From NCBI GenBank assembly GCA_963783655.1, contig CAWAOA010000007.1, positions 55,229 through 119,228 of the forward strand: a stretch of DNA of 64,000 nucleotides, in the 5' to 3' direction. Of this stretch, positions 4,092 through 48,105 are shown one piece after another (position 1 is the stretch's first letter; each line of letters starts with the position of its first letter). This DNA is from an uncultured Chloroflexia bacterium. GTDB taxonomy: Bacteria > Chloroflexota > Anaerolineae > CG2-30-64-16. The notes beneath the pieces were generated by a model. It saw only the letters and a list, made by a program, of their open reading frames with translations. It made no database searches and had not been told where the DNA came from. The translations under genes were made by a program, and so were the position numbers.

Positions 4092-5431
4092 CTATTGCGC
4101 CGCTTTCACGTGGCGGTCAAAGAAGGCGACGGTGCGCTGCATGGCGAGGGCGAAGTCCGCTGGAATCAGATTGATGTTGTGGTTCTCATTCGGGTAAGTG
4201 AACAGTTCGATCTTCTGCCCGGCTGCGGCGGCCTGACGCACCAGCGATTGCGATGCCGCCACGGGAACGACGTCGTCGTTGGCAGCATGGTGCAGCTCGA
4301 TCGGGCCCGACAGTTCGGCCAGGTAGCTGTTGGGTGACATGGCAGCCCAAAACTCAGGGTTTCCCTCCGGCGTACCGAACCTGTCGATCAACTGCCGCCG
4401 CCACGGATGGAGGGCAAAAACGGCAGGGCCCGAGCCACGCGCATGGATATCCGGATAAGGCCCGACGCTCCCGCCCCAGATGACTCCGGCCTTGATATCG
4501 CGTGAAACCACCATCGTGCGCAGCGTGAGCTGGCCACCCATAGAGTGTCCCCACATCCCGAGCCGGTTGGGGTCCGCCTCCGGATGCCGCTTGACCGACG
4601 CGACGGCATTGAGCACGTCTGTGGTATACGCCGGTGAAGTGTACGCGTTGATCGGTGTGCCTTCCGAACTGCCGTGGCCCCGATAGTCGGTCTTGAAGAC
4701 GATGTATCCATTGCGCGCGAACGTGTCGATGTAGTAGATGTAGCGCTCTGTGGTGCGATGGAGTGAGGGCTCGATGGTGCCGTGATTCAGAAAGATGACG
4801 GGCCACCCGCCCGCGGGTTTCGGCCCTGCCGGGATCGTCATGAGCGCGTAGATCTTGAGTCCGTCCGAACGGTACGAGACCACGTAGCGGCGGTAGTTGC
4901 TGCCCGGCTGAAGTGTCTGCTCGACGATGATCTCGCTGCCCGGGTATTCTTGCTGTCGCATCTGCTCGATCTGCAGCGGATGTGACTCAAACCTGGGCGC
5001 CGCTTGTAGCCGCCGGCGGTTTGGGTGTAGCGGTGGCGGCCGGCAGGTGGGGCGTAGCGGTAGCGGCCGGCAGCTGGGCTGTGGCAGTGGACGCAGGCGG
5101 TACCGGTGTAGCGGCAGCGGCCGGGGGAACCGGAAACGTCGCGAACGGGCGCGGACGTCGAAACCGGCGACGCGGCCGGCGATGCGGCTGCCGGCAGCGC
5201 AGCGTGGACTGTCTGCGACCTGGAGTCTGCCGCGACGGCAGCAGCCATGGCCGTGGCCGGCAATAAGGTTGGGGTGCTCGGTTCCGGCGTGCCCGCTTTC
5301 GCCGTGTCTCCGGCTGTCGACAGGCCGATGCCCGCAATCCCACGCGCTACGCCCGCCTGTGCGGGCACGGAATCCGGGCCACAGCCCGAGATCAAGACCG
5401 TCAAGACCAGAACAAGCAAGCAGGTGCGCAT
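4092..5431 (-). CDS. Lipoprotein alpha/beta hydrolase (S9 prolyl-oligopeptidase/dienelactone-hydrolase type) with a Pro/Ala/Thr-rich linker
   Basis: ORF 4092..5435 C-terminal part: YALMTIP...GWPVIFLNHG, DYRGHGSSEG, nucleophile elbow GMWGHSMGG, HHAANDDVVP, NENHNI. The N-terminus lies in another frame (ORF 4838..5524, internal MRTCLLVLVLTVLISGC = lipobox signal). The linker lies in a third frame (ORF 4987..5343). Confidence 0.7.
5027..5134. repeat. About four copies of a 27-bp tandem repeat encoding 9-aa PAATATPxx units
   Basis: Consecutive units gtagcggtggcggccggcaggtggggc, gtagcggtagcggccggcagctgggct, gtggcagtggacgcaggcggtaccggt and gtagcggcagcggccgggggaaccgga. The minus-frame translation is PAAAATPVP PASTATAQL PAATATPHL PAATATPKP. 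Confidence 0.7.
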
Positions 5432-5755
5432 CCATGTTAACCGCACTCGCGTCCTCCCGAGTGATTTGCTACCGGCTGATATCTCGTCGATTGCGATGAC
5501 CGGTCCCACCGGGGCGTTACACATTCGACAGCGCTACGGTGGCATTCATGCCGGGCGAGTTGCCCGCTGGCAGTTTGGGGCAACAAGCGGCGCCACCGGC
5601 CGGCAGTGCCGGAGTATACCGCGAATCGGCCCCGAGCGGCTAATTGGCGTGGCTCCGCGACATAACGATTCGTCCTGCCCGGTCGATGAAGCTGTGGCCG
5701 CCCAATTGGAGCTCGCGGCGGCAGTGCAGGCGCGGCCAGACAGCTGGCACACAGC

Positions 5756-5785
5756 AAAAGCGGCAGCCGTTTCGAAGGCCGCCGC
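5756..5785 (-). terminator. Rho-independent-type terminator after the VWA gene
   Basis: Plus strand reads aaaa gcggcagcc gtttcgaa ggccgccgc. The stem is 9 bp with one mismatch, and TTTT follows it on the minus strand. It lies about 40 bp past the stop at 5822. Confidence 0.5.
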
Positions 5786-5821
5786 TTGCCGCAGGTGAGG
5801 CGAGAGCACGCATCCGGGCCG

Positions 5822-6823
5822 CTACAGTAACCGGTTGAACCAGAGAATCGAGAGTCCGGTCGCGACCACCGACAGCGCCAGGGCGGCAGCCGTGAACAGG
5901 GCCGTGATCTCAGTAAGCTGGGTCCGGAGCACGAATTCCTTGCGCAGGTTATCGTAGATCGACTGCAGGTCCTTCCCCGAGGAAGCGTTGAAGTACTTCC
6001 CTTCGGTGGCCTCAGCGATCGCCTTCAGCGTGTCCTCGTCAAGGCGCACGCGCATCGAGCGCCCCCGATTCTGCAGCACCGCCCCTCGGCGCTGCCCAGC
6101 CCGATCGTGTAAACGCGAATACCCGTTGTCCGCGACCTGCTGCATCACCTCCAGCGGAGCGGGGCCCGCGTTGTTCTCTCCGTCGGTCAGCAGCGACGAT
6201 CACCGCCTGGCCGTTGCTGCCCGCCGGAACCTGGATCGGCTGGGGTCTGACCTGGCCCTGCGCATCCCCTTTGGTCAGGGTTTTCGTTGATGGCTTCCAG
6301 CGAGGTCAGCAGGGCCGAGCCGATGGCCGTGCCGCGCTGCGGCAGGCAGCCGGTTGATCGCGGCGATGACCGCCTCCTTGTCGGTGGTCGGGGACCTGCA
6401 CCAGGAAGGCGTTGTCGCTGAAGCGCGACGACGCCGATCTTGACGCCCACCGGCTGTCTCTCGACGAAGGCACGCGCCGCCTCTTTGGCCGCCTCCAGGC
6501 GGTTGGGCTTCATGTCGTCGGCGCGCATGCTGCCCGACACATCCATGGTCAGGATGACGTTGCCTTCCTGCGCCGGCAGTGTCACGACTGCGGATCGGGC
6601 CGCGCGAGCGCGACCAGCATGACGGCCAAGGCTAGCGAGGAAGAGCGCCGGCGGCACGTGCCGGCGCCAGCCCGGTCCCTGTCCCAGCGCCTCCTTGACC
6701 AGCGAAAGGCTGGCATAGCGCAGGGCGTAGCGCTGCCGTCGGCGCTGCAGCAGGATGTAGGCCGACCACCAGCACGGGCAACAGCAGTAATGCCCAGAGC
6801 ATCTGGGGCCAGGTGAATTCCAT
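5822..6823 (-). CDS. VWA-domain membrane protein (BatA-like), with frame changes
   Basis: The start MEFTWPQMLWALLLLPVLVVG is the tail of ORF 6632..7186 (ATG at 6823). The MIDAS motif is in ILTMDVSGSMRADDMKPNRLEAAKEAARAFV (ORF 6187..6657). The C-terminus is GKYFNASSGKDLQSIYDNL plus TM ITALFTAAALALSVVATGLSILWF (ORF 5822..6148). Confidence 0.7.
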
Positions 6824-6833
6824 ACGTCGCCTC

Positions 6834-7766
6834 ACGATCGTTGCCTCATGCAGCTCTACGTGCGACGGTGCAGGCGCTGGCGACGCTGCTTTCTCTGCTT
6901 GCGCCGTCCGGCGAACTGCGACGATCGCGCGCACCAGGTCATCCTCGGTCGAGAGGGACAGAACATCCACGCCGGCATGCCGAAAGGCGGCGTCCAGCGC
7001 CGCCTCGCGGCGCGCCGCAGCCTCGTGGAAGCGCTGGCGGAAGCGCCGGTCGTGCGTGTCGACCCAGAGCTGCTCGCCGGTCTCGGCATCCTGCATCAGC
7101 ACCAGACCGATGTCGGGCAGGTCGACTTCGCGCGGGTCCCACAGCCGCACCGCCAGCACCTCGTGGCGCCGGTTCAGCACGCCCAAGGGCGCTCCCAGCC
7201 GGGAGCGCTGATGAAATCGGAGACGACGAACACCAGCGAGCGCCGGCGGATGATGCTGCAGGGCCGTGCTCGAGCAGGATGCCCAGGTCGGTGAACGGCG
7301 CAGGCCGGCAGGTCGCGGCTGCTCGATGCAGATCGTTGATCAGCCGCAGCACGTGCAGGCGCCCGTGCCGGGCGGGATGCACGCGCTCGACCTGGCTGTC
7401 GTAGAGGATCGCGCCCGACGCGGTTGCCGTGCCGGGTCAGCAGCCGCGCCAGGACCGCCACGAAGTCGATCAGGCGCGTCGCGCTTCAGGCTGTTGACCG
7501 GTGCCGAAATCGACCGACGGGCTGAGATCGAGCAGGAACCAGGCCGTGATCTCGCGGTCCTCGTGATACTGGCGGACGTAGGGCGTGTCCATCCGCGCGG
7601 TGACGTTCCAGTCGATGTAGCGGATGTCGTCGCCCGGCTGGTACTCGCGCAGGTCGGCCAGGTCCAGGCCGTAGCCGTAGAACAGGCTGCGGTAATCGCC
7701 CTGCAGGATGCCGTCCAGCCGGCGGATGACCTGCCAGTCCAGCCGCTGCAGGATGCGCTCCGGCAT
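6834..7766 (-). CDS. DUF58 family protein, with frame changes
   Basis: LREYQPGDDIRYIDWNVTARMDTPYVRQYHEDREITAWFLLDLSPS (ORF 7470..7952) and HEVLAVRLWDPREVDLPDIGLVLMQDAETGEQLWVDT (ORF 6632..7186) are the typical DUF58 core. The gene sits between MoxR and the VWA gene. Confidence 0.7.
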
Positions 7767-37955: not shown

Positions 37956-38684
37956 TCATTGCAGTCTGCGTGACTTACGGCCGTTACTTGCCGTTGCCGC
38001 TGCGCCGCTGCCTGCGCGCCGATCGCGCGCAGCACGCGCAGCGTCAGCGCCAGGCCGCGGCGGACGTTCGGGTCGCGCATCTGGCGCAGCAGCGCGACGC
38101 AGCGAGGTGTCCACCGGCTGGTCCTTCTCGCGCTCGATGACCTGCACGGTGTTGCGCACGAAGTTCATGATCTCCGGCTGGGTCATCTCCTTGACCGTCT
38201 GCAGGATCAGCACGACGTTGTCGCCCAGCGGCCGCACGTCCTCCTCGCTGAACGAGGTGACGATGTTGTCGACGATCCGCATGCCGCCCCGGGCGAAGGC
38301 GAAGTAGCCCTTGCGCTCCAGCCTGCTCCAGACTGTCCACCGCCTTGCCGAACGCCTCATCGCTCAGCGGCCCGACGGTCTCGACCAGGTCCATCACGCT
38401 CTCGAGCTGGTCGAGCATCTTCTCGATATTGCGCCCGTTGCGCAGCAGGCGCTTGACAGCCGCAGCAGGTCGTCCAGGTCGACATACTCCTGGACCTCCT
38501 CGAGCTGCTCGACCGCCAGCCGGAAGGCGTCGTTGGCGATCGGCATCAGGTCGCGCATCAGCTCGGCGCGCTCCTCGCGCTGCGCGCTCGGCGATGCCTG
38601 CGCCTGCTCGGTCAGGATACTGCACCTGGGCCGTCAGGAGGTCGATCTTCTGGTTCGAGCTTCGCACGCGATTGCCTGGTCCAT
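37956..38684 (-). CDS. DUF1641-family protein, with frame changes and an uncertain 3' end
   Basis: The ATG at 38684 follows AGGAGGG. Key strings: LLRNGRNIEKMLDQLESVMDLVETVGPLSDEAFGKAVDSLEQ (ORF 38044..38667) and GMRIVDNIVTSFSEEDVRPLGDNVVLILQTVKEMTQPEIMNFVRNTVQVI (ORF 37956..38360). From memory, DUF1641 usually sits next to SQR-type flavoproteins. Confidence 0.55.
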
Positions 38685-38697
38685 GGCGTGCCCTCCT

Positions 38698-39941
38698 CTA
38701 CTGGCGCCACTTGCCGGCCATGCTCATGCGCGCCGGCAGCGGCAGTTCCTGGCCCTTGAGCAGGATGTTCCAGTACATCCAGCGGAACATCATCTTGCCC
38801 CAGTGGTTCATCTCGGATTCCTCGAGCAGCGTGAAGGGACCGACGCCGGGCAGCGGGTAGCGGCCGGGCAGCGGCTCGACGTCGTAGTTGAAGTCGATCA
38901 GCAGGCCCTTGCCGAAGCCCGACTCGATGAAGCAGTTGGCGTGCCCGTCGAAGGTCGGCAGCAGCTCCAGCCCGTCGATGTAGCGCAGGAAGTTCTCGGC
39001 GAAGACGTCCACGGCGAAATGGGCCACCGAGCCGGCCTTCGAGGTCGGCAGCGTTGGCGGCGTCGCCCAGCACGAAGATGTTGGCGTACTTGGGCGACAG
39101 GAAGGTGTGCTTGTCGACCGGGACGTAGTTCAGCTCGTCGCCCAGCCCCGAGCGGGCGATCACCTCGGCGCCCATGTTGAGCGGGACGCTCACCAGCAGG
39201 TCGTACTCGCACCTCCTGCTCGTCGTAGGACACGATCTTCTTGGCGTCCGGGTCCACGTGCTCGATCATGAACTCGGGCACCACCTTGATGTTCTTCTGT
39301 TCCAGGATGTCGCCCAGGTGCTTGGAGGCGATCGGCTTGGTGAACGCGCCGGGCAGCGGCGTGGCATAGATCAGCTCGACCCGGTCGCGGATGCCCTGCT
39401 CGTGGAAGAACCAGTCGGCCAGCATGAGGAACTCCAGCGGCGCCACCGGGCACTTGATCGGGTTCTCGACGACGTTGACCACCAGGCGGCCGCCCTGCCA
39501 GGTGCGCAGGTGCTTCGCCAGCGCCAGCGCGCCCTTCGAGGGTGTAGAAGTCGTGGATCGACTTGCTGCCACTCGTGCTCCTGCAGCCCGGGGGTCTGCT
39601 CGGGGTGCGTCTGCGCGCCGGTGGCGATGACCAGGAAGTCGTAGTTGAGGTAGCGGCCGTCCTTGGCCAGCTTCACCCGGTTGTGGTCCGGCTCGATCGA
39701 CCTCGATGGGCGACATGATCAGCTCGACGCCGGCCGGGATGAAATCGCGCTTGGGCTTGACCACGTCGTTCTTGCCGTAGATGCCGAACGGGATGAACAG
39801 GAAACCCGGCTGGTAGTAGTGCTGTCTCGTGCTGGTCGACGATGGTGATGTGCCACTCGTCGTGATCGAGCAAGCCGGTTGAGCCGGTTGGCGACCATCG
39901 TGCCGGCCGTGCCGGCGCCGAGGATCAAGAAGCTTCTTCAT
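38698..39941 (-). CDS. FAD-dependent pyridine-nucleotide-disulfide oxidoreductase, sulfide:quinone-oxidoreductase type, with at least 5 frame changes
   Basis: Reconstructed from ORFs 39719..39928 (ILGAGTAGTMVANRL), 39673..39873, 38898..39941 (YYQPGFLFIPFGIYGKNDVVKPKRDFIPAGVELI; NPIKCPVAPLEFLMLADWFF; IYATPLPGAFTKPIAS), 39371..39676 (YDFLVIATGA), 38612..39193 (VSVPLNMGAEVIARSGLGDELNYVPVD, IFVLGDAAN) and 38698..39027 (AHFAVDVFAENFLRYIDG...FDGHANCFIESGFGKGLLIDFNYDVEPLPG). Confidence 0.75.
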
Positions 39942-40755
39942 GTGCTATCCCTCCTTGCTCGTAAATTGGTTCTATAGTGACGGTCAGCACGGCGATCGGC
40001 TTGCAGCCGGTTGATGATGAGCTCCGGTCTTCTGCAATGTGCGAGAACACGTCGGCGATCCGCTGGACAAATCGAAGCACCCGGGCACGTTGCTCCGCGT
40101 CGAGATGGTGGACGGCATCGCAGTGAGCCGCCAGATATGCAGTCTCGGCCCCTGCTTCCTTTGCCGCCTCAGCCAGCTGTTCGCTGCTCGGCGGCCAGTT
40201 GTCTGGGGCGATGCAACCGGCCACGACAAGGCCCTTCAACTCGCTACCCTGGCGGATCAGACCGCGGGCACACAGCAAGCCCAACTCATTGGTGGTGAAC
40301 CGGGGTTCGAGCGAGATGGCATCTGCCATTTGTTGCCAGGTACGCATGCAGCCCGCCCAGCCGGAACCGGTGTGCTCCGTAACCGCCACGAAGAGGCCGC
40401 TGGGATTGCTTACCTGAGTAACCGGTTGTCCTTGCATGTCGGTGACGACGAGCGCGCACTCCAGCATTTCCGCAAAGGCATCCTGAATCAGTTGGACGCA
40501 CGCAAGTGGGAGGATCTGGGCAAGAGACGCCGGCGCCGCGGAAGCCGAATGCGCCGGCGGTGCGACGGGCGCCGGATCGACTGCCGGCAGTGCGCCCTGT
40601 GTCTGCATCCAACGCCCCAGCTCTTCCTTCGAGAAACGCCATTGCTTTCCGACCCGAATGGCCGGCAAACGGCCATCGTCGATCATCCGGTAAATCGTCG
40701 TGCGGTCAACCTGCAGCAGGTCCTGGACCTGGCGTGTGGTGAGTAAGTCGGCCAT
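39925..40755 (-). CDS. Transcriptional regulator: excisionase/MerR-type HTH plus PocR sensory domain
   Basis: LLTTRQVQDLLQVDRTTIYRMIDDGRLPAIRVGKQWRFSKEEL, then LIQDAFAEMLECALVVTDMQGQPVTQVSNPSG...LLCARGLIRQGSELKGLVVAGCI (PocR-like). The 3' end may be frame-shifted, and it overlaps the SQR start. Confidence 0.7.
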   Translation of the reverse strand: MADLLTTRQVQDLLQVDRTTIYRMIDDGRLPAIRVGKQWRFSKEELGRWMQTQGALPAVDPAPVAPPAHSASAAPASLAQILPLACVQLIQDAFAEMLECALVVTDMQGQPVTQVSNPSGLFVAVTEHTGSGWAGCMRTWQQMADAISLEPRFTTNELGLLCARGLIRQGSELKGLVVAGCIAPDNWPPSSEQLAEAAKEAGAETAYLAAHCDAVHHLDAEQRARVLRFVQRIADVFSHIAEDRSSSSTGCKPIAVLTVTIEPIYEQGGIAHEEAS

Positions 40756-41112: not shown

Positions 41113-43793
41113 CTATTGTTTTCCGGGCAACGCCCACACGTCAAAGCCTTGCGTGTTCGCGGCCACCAGCAGGCTCCCGTCGGGCGAGAAAGCCACCCAC
41201 TTCGTGGCGCCCGCTCCGGATTTGAGCGTCGTCACCTGGTCGCCCGTAGCAACATCCCAAATCTTCACCGCCGTCTCGCCGGTCGTTGCCAACAGCTTGC
41301 CATCCGGCGAGAACGCTGCGTCCGCTGCGGAGGTCTGCTGGATCTCCATCATCATGCGCCTGGTTTCGGGTCGTAGCACGCGAACGGCGTTGCCGGTAAC
41401 CGAAGCGAGCCGGCGCCGTCGGGCGAGAACGCGATGGCTTTCAGGTCCGTGCGGCTGTCCAGTTGCACGGGCTCATCAACCGCTCCCAGGTCCCATAGCT
41501 CCACTCCGAGGACGCCGGCCGCCGCCAGATGGCTGCCGTCAGGCGAGAAGGCCACCCGTTTCACGGTCTGCGTCTTCCCGGGGAGCGTGTCGATCTCCTG
41601 CGAGGCCGGCGGGGTCCAACAGCTTGGTGACCATGCCGGTCCCGGCCGCCAGCAGGCTGCCGTCAGGTGAGTAGGCGAGGCTCTCGACGCTGCCCGAGCA
41701 GACTTGCTGGAAACCAGCTCGCCGCCGGTGCGCGGGTCCATCAGGCTTGATCCCCTCGCCGGTTCCGAGTGCAAGCGCTTTCCCGTCAGGCGAGAATGCC
41801 ACGCTCAAGACCATATCGTTCGACTGCATCTGTCGACCGGCCTACTCCGGCGGGCATGGTCCACAATGAGACTGTGTTCTCGACCGTCACGAGCTGCTTG
41901 CCGTCGGGTGAGAATTCCAGCACTCGCGAGTAGGGACTGCTGGTAGGCAGCGCCCGGCGCTCCAGCTGAGCGACGTTGGCCGCCGTGATCGCGGAAGGTG
42001 ATAACGGCACAGGCGCTGCGCGCGGGCCGGGCGGCTGAATCACTCTCGCGACACCGTTGCCGCTGGCAAGCCCCCAGATGCGAACGTCGTCGCCTCCCTG
42101 GCCGGCCGACGCCAGCAGCGTGCCGTCGGGAGAGAACGCGACGGCATCCACCCACGCCGTGTGTCCGCGCAGGCTTCGCAACCCCTCGCCGGTGGCCGCG
42201 TCCCATAACCGCACCGTCAAGTCTCCGGATGCAGTGGCCAACAAGCTGCCGTCTGGCGAAACCGTCACGCCACTGACCGGTTTGCCGTGGCCGGTGAATG
42301 TCATCGACTGTTTCCCGCTTGTGACATCCCACAGTCGTGGCTGCGCCATCCATAAGAGGAAGCTGCGAGCGATCTGCTGTCCGGCGAGAACCTCACTTCC
42401 GTGACTTCGCCTCCGGGAACGGCGAGGGCGCGCGGCGCGGCCGCGCCGTCAAGCTGTGTGGATTTGAATGTCGCTTCCTGCGATCGCCAGCCACTTGCGG
42501 TCGGGCGACCAGGCCAGCGATTTGAGCATATTGGTGTTACCGGCGAGCGTGTCCAACTCGCGGCCGCTCTCGACGTCGAGCAGGCGCACCACGACGCCCG
42601 AGATCGCTGCAAGGCGCTTGCCGTCGGGAGGAGAAGGCCAACCGGCCCGCATCCGGAACATTGGCGAAGGTCACAACCTCACCCCCCGTCGACCGGCATT
42701 GCGTACCCATACCTTGTCCCCGGCCGCCGCCGCCAGAAGCTTGCCGTCCGGTGAGAAAGCTACACCGCCCGACCACCCGCCTGTGTCCAGCTTGCGCTTC
42801 TGCTTCCAGCTCTGAGCCTCATACAGCTCGATCTCGTACGATGCGACCGCCAACAGACTTCCGTCCGGCGACCAGGCCAGCTGCTGGGCCATCACAGTCG
42901 ATCTGCGCTACTTGGGCGACCTGGCCAACGTTGGCCGCCGAGATGGCGCTGCCGGCGACTGCCGGCGCCCCCGGGGAAGCCGTCTGTGCGGCCGCTGGCG
43001 CACGAGTCGCCGCGATCGGAGACGCCGGGAGCGCCGCGGCTACACGTGGCGTCGTGGTACCGACCGGAACGGCGACCGGGGCGGGTGATGTCTGAGCCGG
43101 ACGAGCCGTCGCCGGTGACAGGGATGTCAGGGATGAGGGAGCGGCTGGCGAAGCCCCAGCGCCGGCGATGACCGGCGCTGACAGGGTAGAGGTCGGGGCC
43201 GGCGCGACGCTTCGTGTGAGCCACCACCCGCCGGCCACCCCCAGCAGCGCCACGACCGCAATCACGGCGATGGTCCATAGCGGCACCCTGCGCTCTCGCC
43301 CCGGGAGCGAGAGCGCTCGCCCGGCCGGCGGAGTCTGTTGGACGCTCTGGGCGGTCGCTGCCGGAGCCGAGGTGCCAGGATCGCCTGTCTCGCCGCCAGC
43401 AGTGCGCTGATGCTATCGGAGAGCGTTTGCAGGTGCTTCTCCAGGGGAGGAGTCGGCGCGTCCAGCCAGTGAGGGACACTGATGAGATACTCCATCGACT
43501 TGGACGGTGGGATATCCTGGATACGAAATGGGACGAGCGGGATCCCCTTACTCACGGCTCGCTCTACCTCGCGCATAACCTGGGGCGACGCGTTGGCATT
43601 GGCCGAAAAGACGAGTACCATCACGCGGCTGCTGTTTATGGCATCGATGATCGCTTCCCCGTAGGGCACGCCCGGCAGCACATCGCGGTGGCGCGATCCA
43701 GCAGCGGATGCCGCGCCCCTCCAGGATCGCGCAGGCCGCGTCGGCGGTGACCTTGTCCTGGTTGGAATAGCTGACGAATACATCGTGCGCCAT
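41113..43793 (-). CDS. TIR-domain / single-TM / ~14-blade WD40 protein, with many frame changes
   Basis: TIR domain: MAHDVFVSYSNQDKVTADAACAILEGRGIRCWIAP (ORF 43548..43826), then RDVLPGVPYGEAIIDAINSSRVMVLVFSANANASPQVMREVERAVSKGIPLVPFRIQDI (ORF 43262..43783). My translation links this to PGTSAPAATAQSVQQTPPAGRALSLPGRERRVPLWTIAVIAVVALLGVAGGWWL (TM, ORF 42819..43286) and a P/A/S/T linker. Repeated (A/V)(F/W/Y)SPDG..LA blades with LWD/IWG strings then follow in ORFs 42671..42895, 42449..42661, 42301..42612, 41786..42349, 41539..41829, 41352..41774 and 41113..41379. GAAGGA lies 8 nt before the ATG at 43793. Confidence 0.75.
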
Positions 43794-43883
43794 AGACACG
43801 TCCTTCGCAGTAACTGGCATCATCACCGATGGTATGGGTATGCTTCAGGCATCGCGCTCGGCCAAAACCGCCGCAGCGGCGCA

Positions 43884-46420
43884 TCACTGCATGCGATAGA
43901 TCTCGAATTTCGCAGCGGCCAGGAAATTAGGAATCGCCCGCACCGTCTGGCGGTCCCATTCCTTCACCTCGTCGGGCAGGTCGGCCCACGGAACCAGGTA
44001 AGGGGATACCTTCCGCTCGATGTTCTTTTCGGGGCCGTAGACCCATCCGGCCAGCCGGCGCTCGCTTACCCACCGGTCATGCTCGATCTCGGCCAGAACC
44101 TCGAGCTCGACCGGCGTGAACACGAAGGCACGCGGATCGGGGCTGGTCACGGGGCCGAACCCGCAGCCCACACGCCGCAGCCTGGCCGGGATATCGTCGG
44201 CCTGCCGGCGGTTGGAATCTTTGAGCCCCGCGTCAAGCTGGTCCCATGGTTGCATGGATGGGTCGGAGTCGGGGCGCTTGCCACGCTGCTCCTCGCGAAA
44301 CGCCTGGTGGATCGCTTGGGCCAGGGTCTCACGCGACGCCCCGAACAGCACGTCGCGCACCACAAGACGGGAGAAGACTTCGTCGTCCACATGCAGCCGC
44401 AGCTGCTCCCGGGGCGGCAGGCAGGACGGCTCGAAGCACGATTGCCCCTGGAGCATGCTCATGTCCAGAATGGCTTCCATCGATCGGGCGCCGTGCTTGT
44501 AGAGGGGGACCTTGATCAGCGCTCGCAGCACGCCGTCGTCAATGCGGGCGCGCTTCTTACTGTCGAGCGGGAAACCCACGTTGCGCTCAATCATCGACCG
44601 GAGCAACATGGCGCGGCGGATGATATAGGCGAAGTCAGTGTCACTGACGGGGTTCGGGCCCATGATATTGACATAACCGCGCAGCCGGCTGGTAAAATCC
44701 GGGCCCTTCACCTTTCGGAAAGCGTCCAGGGCGCCGGCGCGTGCCTCGGGGGGTACATCCTGGCGGCAAAACGCTTCGAAGCTCGCACAGGTGCCCCCGG
44801 CAAAGATGAAGATCGACTTGCCGATGGGGTGCACCGCCTCGCCGTCGCGAAACTCACCGTCTTGCATCGGCGCCAGGAAGTACTTCAGCCAGCCAAGATC
44901 GCCCTCGAAGCCGGAGTCGAATTCGTCAAAAAACACCAGCGGCACAATGCCTTTCAAGGCCAGATCTCGCACCCGGTGGAATGCGCTGATGAGATCGACC
45001 GGCGAGCGGAACTGCGAGAGGTTGAACTCGATTTTGACCACGCGATCGCCGCCGATGCTCTTGGCCACCTGCGTTACACCAAAGGACTTGCCGGAGCCTG
45101 GTGACCCGAAGACCGCCAGCGAGAGCGGACGTGCAACCTGCGCCTCACCGATGTACTGCTGCATCAGGTTGTGAATGCTGCGGAAGCTCTCGATCTCGGC
45201 CCGATCGACCGTTTTGAGAGCGCCGAACTGTCCTACCGGCACCCCCTTCATCGCAGCGGTGTTCCCCTCCTTGACGATCGCATAGGCGATGTCTTCCAGG
45301 ATGCTGCCGTTGACGTCCTGGAGGATGCACCAGTACGTGGGGTCGGCCGGCTCGGTTGCCACCGGATTGGGAACCACCACGTCGGCGAGGTAATCGCCCT
45401 CAGGCGCGAATATCCTGGGGTCGGGGAACGACAGGACTCTCCATCTGCGTCCCGTAGCCCAACCTGAGCAGCTGTTGGGCAGCACGCAGTCCCGACCGGA
45501 TCCCCTCGCCTACGGATGTGCCGGGCGCGGGCTCGTCCGCGTCAGGACCGGCAAGGCGAGCCGCCAGGGCTGCCGTGAATGCGGAGGCGAGTCCTTGCAT
45601 ATCCCCGGCGTAGCGGGCGTGATAGCCACCTTCGGGCTGCGCCGGGTCGAAGTACAGGCGCGCCTGAACGCCCTCCCGCGATTGCCGGTAGTAGATCGCG
45701 GCCTCGAGCCCGAAGCGCACGATCAGATGCCGGCAGTTGGCGAGCGCGCTCAGGGAGGGGTTGCAGGACATCTGCCAGACGAATTCTTTCGCCGTCCGCT
45801 CCCAGGAGAGGCGGCGGCTGATGTTGACGCCGCCCGCCCGAAGGCCGTCGGCGCTGATCACCACCACCAGACGGTCCGCGTGACAGCAGCGCAGGTGATC
45901 CCATAGCAGACCCGTGGCTACCGGCCGGTTCATCTTGTAGATCACGAGTGGCCGGCGCTCGTCGCTGCGAATGGCCAGCGGCCAGAGCGAGGGGAGCGAG
46001 CGGAAGCCGTTGCCGGCATCGTCCAGGATCACGAGAGCCGCGGCCGGGTCGTCGTCGGGCACGGGCCGCAAGCCGGGCTGGCCCCGATGACGGGCCCACG
46101 TAGCCTCGGAACTGCCTGACCCGGTAAACGGGCTTGTCTTTGCTCTTGGGGTCGCTGAAGAGAGCCAACTCGACATTTGAGTGCAGCACTTCCTCGGGCG
46201 AGATCATGGCCAGGCCGTCAAGGCGGGGCGCCAGCACCGGCAAGCCGGTGGTGATGCGGACCATCTCTGCGAGCAACAGGGCGCCACCCGGCACCGGCGC
46301 CATCCGCCCGCCATCATACAATTCCCAGTTCAAGCCCTCATCGTGCTGTCTGGTTGGCCACTGCAGCCAGTCGATGCACAGATCGCCGGTAACGACGATG
46401 TTTCGCCCTTGACCATCCAT
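43884..46420 (-). CDS. Three-part protein: ribokinase(PfkB)-like N-domain, AAA+ ATPase, and two tandem RyR-type repeats. Frame changes near 46090 and 45440.
   Basis: N-domain (ORFs 45542..46420 and 45400..46176): NIVVTGDLCIDWL, PGGALLLAEMV, LVILDDAGNGF, ADRLVVVISADGL, HARYAGDMQGLASAFTAALAARL (compare the PfkB GAGD..aa tail). AAA+ (ORF 43884..45485): Walker A LAVFGSPGSGKSFGV, Walker B PLVFFDEFD, IFIFAGGT. RyR-like repeat 1: LAQAIHQAFREEQ...MQPWDQLDAGLKDSNRRQADDIPARL. RyR repeat 2: LEVLAEIEHDRWVSERRLAGWVYGPEKNIERKVSPYLVPWADLPDEVKEWDRQTVRAIPNFL. Confidence 0.75.
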
Positions 46421-46439
46421 GCCGGGGTCCCTCCTTCGC

Positions 46440-47162
46440 CTAATGAATGCCGGGTATGCCCACCCGATAGAAATACATCATGTGCTCACCATTCGAGCTC
46501 GGGAAACGCTCGAACGTGACTGTCCCTTGCTCGTCACCCAGGCTGACCGGCTGCTCGCTGCCGGGCTGGCGGTTACCGGCATGGACCCATGCTAACGGCA
46601 GGCCGCGTCGCCGCGCCTCCGAGACGACCCAGCCGGTCCCGCCGGCTCCCTGGGGCGGCTGCCCATCCCAGACCGCCAACAACACATCACAGTGCGCCAG
46701 AATATGCCGCCCCGCCGGCTTCGTAGGCCTGCTCGTGGCCCGCACCGCCGCCGGCCCGGACGACCTGAACAGCCCGGGCAAGCAAATCGTCCGGGCCGGC
46801 GCCAGAGCAGGTAACCATGAGATCGGATCGACTATCCGGCTCGCCGGGCGGCAGTACGGCAATCAGGACGGCGCCGGGGCGCATCAGCACGCTGCTCGAG
46901 CGCCTAACCGGTCGGCTCCGTCAGCCAGGCAGCAAATCGCCGCCAGCGGAACAGTGGGGAAGGCAACCTCGATTGCGGCAATGGCCTCATCCAGTCCCTC
47001 TGTCACCCGGTCCACGCCTGCCAAAAAGCGATGTCCTGTAATACCGATTCGGGCATAGGTCGACCTGGCGACCGGCGTGAACGTCACTTCGGGCGCCGCC
47101 GATCGTTGGCGCATAGCGCGGCCGGCATCCCGCAATACCTGCGAAGCGAGACGCGTTGTCAT
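46440..47162 (-). CDS. SLOG-superfamily (DprA/LOG-like Rossmann) protein of about 240 aa, with frame changes near 46890 and 46700
   Basis: ORF 46884..47420 from the internal MTTRLASQV (ATG at 47162): ARIGITGHRFLAGVDRVTEGLDEAIAAIE...LAAICCLADGADRL. ORF 46687..46890: AVLIAVLP. ORF 46440..46862: HCDVLLAVWDGQPPQGAGGTGWVVSEARRRGLPLAWVHAG. This is a strand / Gly-rich loop / helix pattern like LOG PGGxGTxxE. Assigned by motif only. Confidence 0.5.
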
Positions 47163-47331
47163 TGGTCCGGGGAGCTTTGAAGAGGAATTACTGTGCTCAA
47201 CTTCTCGTAACCTGATGGCGGGTAGCAGCGAGCGCCGGTAGGGCGCGGCGAAGTTCCAAGGAGAGCGAGCGAGGTGAACCAGACGGCGACGAAACGGCAA
47301 GCGCCAGCCGGGTTCGCGTACACTTGTGACA

Positions 47332-47360
47332 AGTATAACACTCGAATTCGCCCGGGACAA
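47332..47360 (-). promoter_or_regulatory. Candidate promoter (minus strand) for the SLOG / AAA-RyR / TIR operon, overlapped by a 13-bp palindrome
   Basis: Minus strand reads TTGTCC (47360-47355), a 17-nt spacer, then TATACT (47337-47332). The palindrome ACTTGTGACAAGT at 47322-47334 overlaps the -10/+1 region. Confidence 0.3.
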
Positions 47361-47495: not shown

Positions 47496-48105
47496 CTACC
47501 CTGCGTATTGCAGAGAGCGCATTGCGGGGAAGTGACCACGTACGGGCTGTCCGGCCGGCTCGGCTGCCTGGAGCACAAGAAGCATCTCGGCCGGCTCTTC
47601 GGTGGGGTTACACCATGAGTGCGGCAGTTCAGCATGAAAAAGCAAGAAGTCCCCGGCAGCCAGCGTATACGGTATGCCCTCGACCTGGTACTCCACCACT
47701 CCCCGAAGGCAATAGACGAACTCCTGGCCGCTGTGAACAACTTCGGCAGCCCCGGCATGGGAATGAGGGGCCAGGGTGACGTGGAACGGGTCCACTTTCT
47801 GGTCGCTGATCCGCCCGCCGAGGGCTTCAATCGAAACGCCCTCATTCGTAATGCGTGGCCGCATGCCGGCTCTCGCGGAGTACGACGCTTGATTCGTCCG
47901 GCGTCTCGAAGAAGTAGCTCATGCGCACGCCCAGGGCGCCTGCGAGGTGCTGCAACGTGGCTACACTCGGCGAAGTCTCATCGCGCTCGATCAGGCTCAC
48001 TGTGTTCGTGGAAAGGCCGCTGAGATCGGCGAGATCGCGTTGGGACATACCGCGTTCTCTCCGCAGCGCCTTCAGTTTCGACCCGACCGAGATTTCTGGT
48101 CCCAT
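47496..48105 (-). CDS. XRE-family HTH plus cupin-domain transcriptional regulator, with one frame change near 47860
   Basis: GSKLKALRRERGMSQRDLADLSGLSTNTVSLIERDETSPSVATLQHLAGALGV (ORF 47842..48105) and the cupin part HSGQEFVYCLRGVVEYQVEGIPYTLAAGDFLLFHAELPHSWCN (ORF 47496..47864). Confidence 0.8.

Follow-up and report, generated by a model that had tools for sequence, protein, structure and literature searches.

The pairing of a TIR-domain protein with a partner that senses a nucleotide is already known as the Thoeris paradigm. A recent survey distinguishes 29 predicted Thoeris types, including type VII, in which a TIR protein is combined with a SLATT protein and the signal is cyclic ADP-ribose (cADPR), and type X, which combines a TIR protein with an ion channel; the terms 'RyR', 'AAA' and 'ATPase' were not found in its main text (10.64898/2025.12.03.692087). 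Here we describe a locus that appears to follow the same logic with a different set of parts. It lies in a stretch of 64,000 nucleotides (the window) of contig CAWAOA010000007.1 from an uncultured Chloroflexia bacterium and consists of three genes that we call A, B and C. They encode a free-standing SLOG-fold protein (A), a protein of 846 residues that joins a PfkB-like domain, an AAA+ ATPase and tandem RyR repeats (B), and a TIR protein with a predicted membrane anchor and propellers (C). Judging from sequence and predicted structure, the three probably form a Thoeris-like cassette with a role in conflict or defence, in which the TIR domain would make a nucleotide signal and the RyR and SLOG modules would read it; we hold this reading with moderate confidence. 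The cassette is widespread and has no name.

The likeness to Thoeris lies in a TIR domain with a catalytic Glu that stands beside a SLOG-fold protein, the logic of a signal maker and a signal reader, and in relatives of the cassette that pair its modules with SLATT and channel-like membrane proteins. The differences concern each of the three genes. The type I protein ThsA is a SIR2-SLOG fusion, whereas A is YpsA-like and lacks a SIR2, Macro or transmembrane effector: no such domain, and no match to the ThsA models, was found in it. ThsB is small and cytosolic, whereas C is membrane-anchored with predicted extracytoplasmic propellers, and the most conserved partner here is the large PfkB-AAA+-RyR protein. 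The cassette fits the TIR-signalling paradigm yet misses one defining feature of Thoeris, because no adjacent sensor-toxin fusion is encoded in the window.

For the RyR domain (PF02026), two preprints of 2026 provide a biochemical precedent, and both concern viral proteins that defeat Thoeris (PMC13232231; 10.64898/2026.06.04.730250). RyDEP is a phage RyR-domain glycosidase that opens 2'cADPR and 3'cADPR to ADP-ribose (ADPR), using an H75/D117 dyad and a tryptophan, W78, that stacks on the adenine; it is encoded in a phage operon for the resynthesis of nicotinamide adenine dinucleotide (NAD+), other homologues act as nanomolar sponges, and among the phage RyR homologues that have these residues the majority only bind the signal and do not cleave it (PMC13232231). 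RyR Tad binds 3'cADPR, 2'cADPR and cADPR through H129/W132, K147/H154 and K170/D171 (10.64898/2026.06.04.730250), and the affinity of the phage RyR proteins for 3'cADPR is nanomolar (PMC13232231; 10.64898/2026.06.04.730250). The bacterial PF02026 domain was previously uncharacterised, according to the RyDEP preprint (PMC13232231). Our literature search did not find host RyR-domain proteins described beside TIR genes: 'RyR domain' in combination with SLOG, TIR, anti-phage or conflict systems returned no paper, and 'RyR' with 'Thoeris' returned the two phage preprints only.

RyDEP and RyR Tad share with B the PF02026 domain and the Repeat12 fold, and their contacts correspond by spacing to a putative contact pattern in B of His, an aromatic residue at +3, Lys or Arg at +18 and Asp at +42. 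The phage proteins are small homodimeric counter-defence factors, whereas B is encoded by the cell, carries its repeats in tandem on a single chain and fuses them to AAA+ and PfkB-like domains; B is linked to TIR genes on the side of the host. Animal ryanodine receptors have the Repeat12 fold and putative ligand residues in common with B, a likeness at the level of the domain only, and RyR3 R12 binds adenine nucleotides (PDB 9l9b, 9ls7). The original prediction for this locus, made from the sequence alone, had pointed to the modulation of ryanodine receptors by cADPR as a speculative parallel; with the phage RyR proteins that bind or cleave 2'/3'cADPR the parallel has gained experimental backing for the domain family (PMC13232231; 10.64898/2026.06.04.730250). 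A further parallel to the ryanodine receptors is offered by those bacterial relatives of the cassette that include a membrane protein with two transmembrane helices, a TrkA_N domain and a RyR module (2TM-TrkA_N-RyR).

Other described systems resemble single parts of the locus. Fusions of SLOG and SLATT are a known class of conflict-system effector, and SLOG-SLATT and other SLOG conflict systems were reportedly set out by Burroughs and colleagues in 2015. The A family shares the G-x-D/E motif with these systems and has SLATT-fused members, whereas A of the window is without SLATT; these systems are not known to include a PfkB-AAA+-RyR protein. The same motif is the signature of the YpsA clade; Bacillus subtilis YpsA, with which this clade of SLOG proteins was founded, carries it and is similar in size to A, and its links are with cell division and GpsB rather than with TIR or RyR genes (PMC6459960). 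TRPM2, whose MHR1/2 region is SLOG-like, belongs to a channel group that recurs among the structural matches of A, and no channel is encoded in the window. TIR-STAND or DUF4062-STAND proteins with WD40 or TPR tails (Kaur et al. 2020, PMC7159879) and NLR-like/Avs proteins adjoin B or the B-A pair in many loci. In these proteins, as in C, a repeat sensor is joined to TIR, but C has a transmembrane helix instead of an NTPase and, unlike the TIR-STAND systems, repeats that are predicted to lie outside the cell. The terms 'RyR', 'PfkB' and 'ribokinase' were not found in Kaur et al. 2020 (PMC7159879).

The original prediction read the locus as a tight operon whose composition matched no named defence or signalling system. 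The three genes are indeed co-directional on the minus strand at the predicted positions, with gaps of 19 nt between A and B and 90 nt between B and C. Among the family models of PADLOC and NCBIfam there is none for A or for B, and the sole PADLOC match to B is a marginal one, at the level of the AAA+ domain, to IetA (E=0.0037). The domains had been proposed as a free-standing SLOG-like protein, a possibly inactive PfkB-like fold joined to an AAA+ ATPase and two RyR-type repeats, and a TIR-transmembrane protein with about 14 blades; profile and fold searches, set out below, bear out all of them (coordinates are collected in Table 1).

B ends in a clear RyR module. The Pfam RyR model matches it at E=2.5e-13 (50.5 bits against a cut-off of 27.4), and a profile of the B family retrieves RyR1, RyR2 and RyR3 from the PDB at E=3e-28 in two matched stretches. 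In the AlphaFold model of a B homologue that is 61% identical (P0122; predicted local distance difference test score, pLDDT, 87.8; predicted template-modelling score, pTM, 0.81), Foldseek aligns the C-terminus with RyR3 Repeat12, and the structures matched include those with bound AMP-PCP and with bound ADP plus dantrolene. When repeat 2 is compared with the ligand contacts of the phage RyR proteins, by spacing and not by structure alignment, H785 is present in all 56 of the aligned B sequences, the aromatic residue at +3 in 55, Arg or Lys at +18 in 54 and D827 at +42 again in all 56; the phage His at +25 corresponds to Ser or Thr, and there is a conserved Lys at +23. The repeat in the window reads EIEHDRW...K...KEWDR.

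The number of RyR repeats varies within the family. About a dozen B representatives of roughly 1,015-1,065 residues carry a second complete RyR tandem module, which makes four repeats, as in animal ryanodine receptors (P0401, P0402, P0406, P0407, P0412, P0414, P0415, P0421, P0426, P0438, P0445 and P0502). A RyR-less subfamily stops at about residue 690 (L175:1053-3077, P0420, P0422, P0429, P0449, P0477 and P0480).

The N-terminal third of the P0122 model resembles HldA, PfkB, the ribokinase RbsK and the pseudouridine kinase PsuK (Foldseek E=1e-8 to 1e-6), with target-normalised template-modelling (TM) scores of 0.47-0.57 against these ribokinase-like folds. The PfkB-like domain retains the substrate-side motifs G11-D12...D16 and G44-G45. 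The position of the catalytic Asp in the GAGD motif is occupied by Ser in 37 of the 56 sequences, the window among them, by Asp in ten and by Ala in five, and the NXXE position reads S/N-A-D-D; these motif positions were aligned by eye against predicted secondary structure, with no structural superposition. The domain is probably not a kinase. Its pocket is under selection, because many further polar residues of the domain are invariant. The middle of the model resembles ClpB NBD2, Skd3 and RFC, and the Walker A and B residues (G443, G446, G448, K449 and S450; D503, E504 and D506) are invariant in the 56 sequences; the Pfam AAA match itself is weak (E=4.4e-4, 21.1 bits, just below the cut-off of 21.2). 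Neither Pfam nor Foldseek recognised a toxic domain in B.

These residues can also be read in the opposite direction. B and A might clear the signal or restore NAD+ and so reset or dampen TIR signalling and spare the cell damage of its own making, with the TIR protein itself doing harm by depleting NAD+: the RyR module of B would then be a RyDEP-like glycosidase that converts cADPR isomers to ADPR, the PfkB-like domain would act on the ribose product by binding or phosphorylating it, and A would serve as a LOG-like N-glycosidase or as a buffer. The equivalents of the RyDEP dyad, H785 and D827, are conserved without exception in repeat 2, RyDEP itself sits in an NAD+-resynthesis operon (PMC13232231), and a pathway of that kind would accommodate the ribose-kinase-like fold of B. 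N-glycosidase activity is found in some clades of SLOG proteins (PMC9503650), A and B show no toxic domain, and a NUDIX gene lies beside B in one locus (L045) and near a TIR gene in two more (L169, L171). Against this stand the Ser that replaces the canonical PfkB catalytic Asp in the majority of sequences and in the window, the phage RyR homologues, most of which bind and do not cleave in spite of having these residues (PMC13232231), and the relatives of the cassette, in which RyR and SLOG modules are fused to, or lie beside, SLATT and 2TM-TrkA_N proteins in an arrangement of sensor plus effector; a small-molecule hydrolase, moreover, needs no AAA+ motor. We regard a clearing role for B and A as unlikely.

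Protein A was harder to place. Neither Pfam, its YpsA-family model (DUF1273) included, nor NCBIfam nor PADLOC, its ThsA models included, gives a match, and a search of the A profile against PDB sequences found nothing; only the fold search succeeded. The model of an A homologue (P0003; pLDDT 91) is closest to YpsA (PDB 2nx2; Foldseek E=2.6e-7, TM score 0.60-0.66, 16% identity), and its top 25 matches in the PDB all belong to the SLOG superfamily: YpsA, DprA, ShosA, TM1055, the Moco carrier protein (MCP), LOG and the SLOG domain of ThsA, the last in its 3'cADPR-bound structure (PDB 7uxs). TRPM channels appear lower in the list. On this modelled structure the SLOG assignment is confirmed, membership being at the level of the fold only. 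The family has an invariant GHR loop (G8-H9-R10) and an invariant G47-x-D49, which corresponds to the G-x-D/E signature of the YpsA clade (PMC6459960), together with a GGT loop in which G136, G139 and T140 are conserved and a conserved C-terminal segment of its own (WVHAGN..PGT...SLG.EQG). At least 366 homologues were found, each annotated as 'hypothetical' and about 185-200 residues long; longer ones (536-591 residues) are fusions of SLOG with SLATT_3/SLATT_1 membrane domains.

Other genomes indicate that A and B belong together. The original prediction was to be given up if the genes proved not to be neighbours in any other genome; in fact A and B adjoin each other across phyla, are sometimes fused, and are followed in several loci by a TIR-transmembrane-propeller gene. 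When 80 genome loci centred on B were scanned with a hidden Markov model (HMM) of the A family, about 25 proved to have an A gene no farther than 8 kb away, mostly immediately downstream on the same strand, and these loci come from Chloroflexota, Acidobacteriota, Planctomycetota, Actinomycetota, Gemmatimonadota, one alphaproteobacterium and one metagenome-assembled genome of the Syntrophomonadaceae (Firmicutes). Conversely, B is immediately adjacent to A on the same strand in 43 of 80 A-centred metagenome loci, and is adjacent in 28 of the 41 such loci that extend for at least 700 bp on both flanks. The commonest order is B, A, a 2TM-TrkA_N-RyR gene and then a TIR or DUF4062 gene; the order of the window, with A before B, recurs in six loci (L067, L104, L105, L118, L123 and L175). 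Among the top 150 B-family representatives there are fusions of B with A (P0507), of B with TIR (P0411) and of TIR with B (P0417), as well as a PfkB-AAA protein that carries TIR and no RyR (P0500). Adjacency across phyla, variable gene order and fusions together are standard evidence of functional coupling, and on this genomic evidence A and B may be taken to be coupled; the B-A fusion in addition predicts a direct complex of the two proteins.

The B family is large and patchily distributed over bacteria and archaea. A protein collection clustered at 90% identity holds at least 1,593 matches at 50-60% identity, from Chloroflexota, Planctomycetota, Actinomycetota and methanogens, and the family occurs in at least 316 of the species genomes scanned; in a library clustered at 50% identity 12,672 representatives match at E<=1e-3, a number that falls to 3,838 when E<=1e-30 is required. 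Viral contigs yielded one weak B match and no A match, and the idea that the cassette is borne by phages was dropped for this near-complete absence.

The third gene, C, would supply the signal. Its TIR domain has a presumed catalytic Glu (E85, in a REVE motif) that is invariant in all 121 aligned members of the TIR clade, and PADLOC gives weak, domain-level ThsB matches to it. Nine Arg residues precede the single transmembrane helix and one follows it, from which we infer by the positive-inside rule a cytoplasmic position for the TIR domain and an extracytoplasmic one for the propellers. After the helix comes a linker of about 130 residues rich in Ala, Pro, Ser and Thr, and then 14 xxFSPDGxLLA motifs spaced at 116-128 nt (about 120), with a single break of 222 nt after blade 7. 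This layout of 7 + 7 repeats points to two seven-bladed propellers, and WD40 and PD40 models of Pfam match the scanned part of C.

The predicted position of the propellers outside the cell is unusual in comparison with cytoplasmic phage sensors, and it is here that an alternative without immunity has to be weighed: an environmental or cell-cell cue received by the propellers might be turned by the TIR domain into a messenger that acts through B and A on physiology, for instance on ion homeostasis, dormancy or development. Multicellular or filamentous bacteria are enriched in related systems of the conflict type (PMC7159879), TrkA_N/RCK partners suggest a control of ion flux, the B genes that stand alone in Clostridia suggest a broader physiological role, and the locus lies in no defence island but between transcription regulators. 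The partners of the cassette elsewhere are nevertheless of the conflict type, namely TIR-STAND or DUF4062-STAND proteins with WD40 or TPR tails, SLATT proteins, tandem TIR paralogues and insertion sequence elements; the patchy spread over bacteria and archaea at 50-60% identity points to horizontal transfer, and phages use RyR-domain proteins specifically against TIR signalling (PMC13232231). A purely physiological role seems improbable to us.

The link between TIR and the B-A pair also holds beyond the window. For 26 B-A pairs the contig continues for at least 1.5 kb downstream; in 14 of them a TIR or DUF4062 gene follows within 3.5 kb, and in 11 of the 26 a TrkA_N gene follows. TIR genes with a transmembrane helix and WD40-type repeats follow the B-A pair in five loci (L065, L110, L124, L133 and L136) and follow A in another (L132). 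Two caveats apply: the type of TIR partner differs among loci (TIR-TM-X, TIR-STAND or DUF4062-STAND), and the window lacks the SLATT and 2TM-TrkA_N-RyR membrane effectors found in relatives. PADLOC run on the operonic neighbours of B gave matches at the level of TIR and of repeats only. DUF4062 was considered as a TIR-like domain and rejected (hhalign probability 0.4%), so that it is not counted as TIR.

Among the loci compared, the TIR domain of C is most similar to TIR genes beside B or A (E=1e-63 to 1e-40). It belongs to a very large clade whose members are 65-74% identical within the domain and highly varied in their C-termini. Eight members on long contigs were sampled blind to context, and a RyR-domain gene lies within 7 kb in six of these loci, or in four of six independent contexts, as L172, L173 and L174 are one syntenic locus in related genomes. 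The RyR partners come in four architectures: RyR followed by SLATT, TrkA_N-RyR (twice) and RyR-TPR-S. Thus in L167 the TIR gene is followed by a gene for a RyR protein of 81 residues and one for a SLATT_1 protein, in L168 and L170 TIR genes adjoin a TrkA_N-RyR protein, and in the syntenic locus the TIR gene has RyR-TPR-S as its immediate upstream neighbour. Of 1.84 billion library representatives a fraction of only about 7e-6 matches the B profile, even with RyR-only matches counted, and for that reason the co-location of TIR and RyR is not due to chance. In terms of gene neighbourhoods, what the partners of this TIR clade have in common is the RyR module.

The same loci yielded several observations on their own account. 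L170 (7001-12625) holds four TIR-clade paralogues near the TrkA_N-RyR gene, a single copy on the plus strand and a run of three consecutive copies on the minus strand; the array recalls the multi-TIR arrays of some Thoeris loci. In L172, L173 and L174 (about 4590-7530) a short TIR gene and the RyR-TPR-S gene stand next to an lptC/lptA/lptB-rpoN-hpf housekeeping block. The RyR-TPR-S protein has a weak A-family match (E=2e-6 in L173), and in L172 and L174 a separate downstream open reading frame has a weak guanylate-cyclase match. The two loci of the sample with no RyR gene near TIR have a NUDIX gene nearby (L169:8950-9558 and L171:8922-9365), and another lies directly after B (L045:10687-11208); NUDIX may be another module of the same network, as NUDIX enzymes act on ADP-ribose.

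The membrane protein that recurs as a partner is about 600 residues long, with two N-terminal transmembrane helices and a short hydrophobic loop between them, a TrkA_N/RCK domain and a C-terminal tandem RyR module, an architecture like that of a ligand-gated channel (for example L051:11389-13143, L062:7672-9501 and, on the minus strand, L168:8228-10063). Ion_trans gave no Pfam match at E<=10 when a potassium-channel pore was looked for, and 'channel' is here an architectural guess. In L003 (10142-13220) a DDE transposase appears to split the TrkA_N part (236 residues) from the RyR part (317 residues).

A mechanism can be proposed on these grounds. The two propellers of C would respond to an event at the cell surface, be it the attachment of a phage, damage to the envelope or contact with another cell, upon which the cytoplasmic TIR domains would cluster and use NAD+ to make a cADPR-type signal derived from ADP-ribose. 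The signal would be read by the tandem RyR Repeat12 module of B and by A, the free-standing SLOG protein, for which docking on B is probable. Ligand binding would switch on the AAA+ ATPase of B, with the PfkB-like domain as a further pocket for ribose or a nucleoside, and the infected cell would stop growing or die. In the window the output would have to be provided by B, unless the TIR domain itself provides it by depleting NAD+; in any specific output of B our confidence is far lower than in the cassette as such. Sister cassettes, in which the same sensors are wired to SLATT or to 2TM-TrkA_N-RyR proteins, point to membrane or ion-flux outputs. The nucleotide-signalling interpretation that the original prediction had put forward is supported by the identities of the domains and by their conserved linkage. 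Gene order, the identity of the domains, the conservation of catalytic and putative ligand-contact residues, the recurring neighbourhoods and the fusions are direct observations. The production of a signal, the module that binds it, the docking of A on B, the topology of C, the output of B and the anti-phage role are parts of the model that we infer.

A broader proposition follows the same lines and is more tentative, somewhat short of an even chance in our estimate. Host RyR Repeat12 modules would be the native receptors of TIR-made cADPR-type signals and would define a large unnamed Thoeris-like branch; in it the RyR module, in many cases alongside a SLOG protein of the YpsA type, would gate interchangeable outputs, among them the PfkB-AAA+ machine, SLATT pores and the RCK-bearing two-transmembrane protein. 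RyDEP and RyR Tad of phages would be captured host sensors.

Several findings weigh against the Thoeris-like reading of the locus. The closest relative of B (L175, 78% identity) is without the RyR module and has no TIR gene nearby, and many B genes, mostly of Clostridia, stand alone without A, TIR or another conserved operonic partner; B may therefore function without a neighbouring TIR. The window encodes no recognisable toxic effector. B has the His as well as the Asp that form the catalytic dyad in RyDEP, so that the RyR module could destroy the signal instead of sensing it. PADLOC matches the TIR domain only, the flanks consist of housekeeping and regulator genes and not of a defence island, and the locus carries about twelve frameshifts, which are probably assembly errors.

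If the Thoeris-like reading holds, the cassette would represent a new and abundant branch of TIR-based bacterial immunity, the 3,838 clusters of the B family alone being a measure of its size, and the cellular counterpart of the phage RyR anti-Thoeris proteins of 2026, which would explain the source from which phages obtained them. The bacterial RyR domain PF02026 would acquire a host-side role, and an AAA+ ATPase with a kinase-like ligand pocket would be a possible new type of signal-gated effector. C would be a bacterial protein with the topology of a Toll-like receptor, with repeats outside, one transmembrane helix and TIR inside, and the long-debated link between cADPR and the ryanodine receptor would become testable in a simple bacterial system.

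Table 1. Features of the A-B-C locus and its surroundings, in positions of the window
Feature	Position	Strand	Remarks
Gene A	47162 (ATG) -> 46440 (stop)	minus	free-standing SLOG-fold protein, YpsA-like clade
Gene B	46420 (ATG) -> 43884 (stop)	minus	three reading frames; 846 residues after stitching
B, N-terminal ribokinase/PfkB-fold domain	45430..46420	minus	Foldseek; frameshift near 46085
B, central AAA+ module	44355..45225	minus	Walker A GSPGSGKSF, Walker B LVFFDEFD, sensor-1-like FAGGT; frameshift near 45425 just upstream
B, C-terminal tandem RyR (Repeat12-type) module, including stop codon	43884..44354	minus	Pfam RyR
Gene C	~43793 (start) -> 41113 (stop)	minus	TIR-transmembrane-propeller protein
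C, N-terminal TIR domain	43409..43793	minus	TIR_2 E=4.7e-18; local TIR HMM matches two frames; frameshift near 43680
C, single transmembrane helix PLWTIAVIAVVALLGVAGGWWL	43218..43286	minus	Kyte-Doolittle scan; residues 175-193 of stitched C
C, 14 WD40/PD40-like blades (2 x 7), predicted extracytoplasmic	41113..42900	minus	motif periodicity
Sigma-70-like promoter match TTGTCC-17-TATACT with TG extension	47332..47360	minus	~170 nt upstream of the ATG of A
HTH_3 (XRE-type) + Cupin_2 regulator	47496..48105	minus	frameshift-split; ~330 nt upstream of A
HTH_17 + PocR sensory regulator, then frameshifted genes	39925-40755 and 37956-39941	minus	

All three genes are interrupted by frameshifts. Mapping guided by homology places about twelve in about 6 kb: two in A (near 46893 and 46715), two in B and about eight in C, of which one falls in the TIR domain and at least five in the blade region. 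In gene A the HMM of the family supports a core from 47054 to 46494 that is distributed over three frames, and the true start may lie nearer 47060. So many frameshifts raise the possibility of a decayed remnant of three pseudogenes, or of an accidental neighbourhood of genes with no joint function in this organism, and the B gene of the closest relative (L175) is truncated as well. The four junctions that were inspected, however, all lie at GGGG or CCCC runs, no in-frame stop was seen between the frameshifts, the conserved motifs are intact, and the flanking genes are broken at a similar rate, the sulfide-quinone-reductase-like gene and the HTH-cupin gene being frameshifted as the cassette is. 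Because the housekeeping and regulator genes nearby show the same kind of break and the junctions examined fall at G4/C4 runs, we favour sequencing error: the frameshifts are more likely homopolymer errors of an unpolished long-read assembly than signs of pseudogenisation. A chance neighbourhood is ruled out by the adjacency and fusions across phyla, and a remnant without joint function is in our view very improbable. Proteins from contig CAWAOA010000007.1 need frameshift correction. Of the genes examined between 37800 and 50500 almost all are broken up into two or three reading frames, as is probably the case throughout the window.

As to the surroundings of the cassette, the GC content of the window is about 64%. 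Scans for tRNA genes and, at the gathering score, for Rfam families over positions 1-64000 found none, and a terminator scan gave none above chance. Three sigma-70-like consensus matches were found in the region against 1.0 expected from shuffled sequences, and the promoter listed in Table 1 is a consensus match only. The HTH-cupin regulator was considered as a member of the cassette and is probably not one, being absent from the recurring neighbour clusters at other B loci and not met again at A loci either. On the other side, the genes that come after the HTH_17-PocR regulator read in translation as sulfide:quinone-oxidoreductase-like and DUF1641-like; the fragments of these genes gave no Pfam match.

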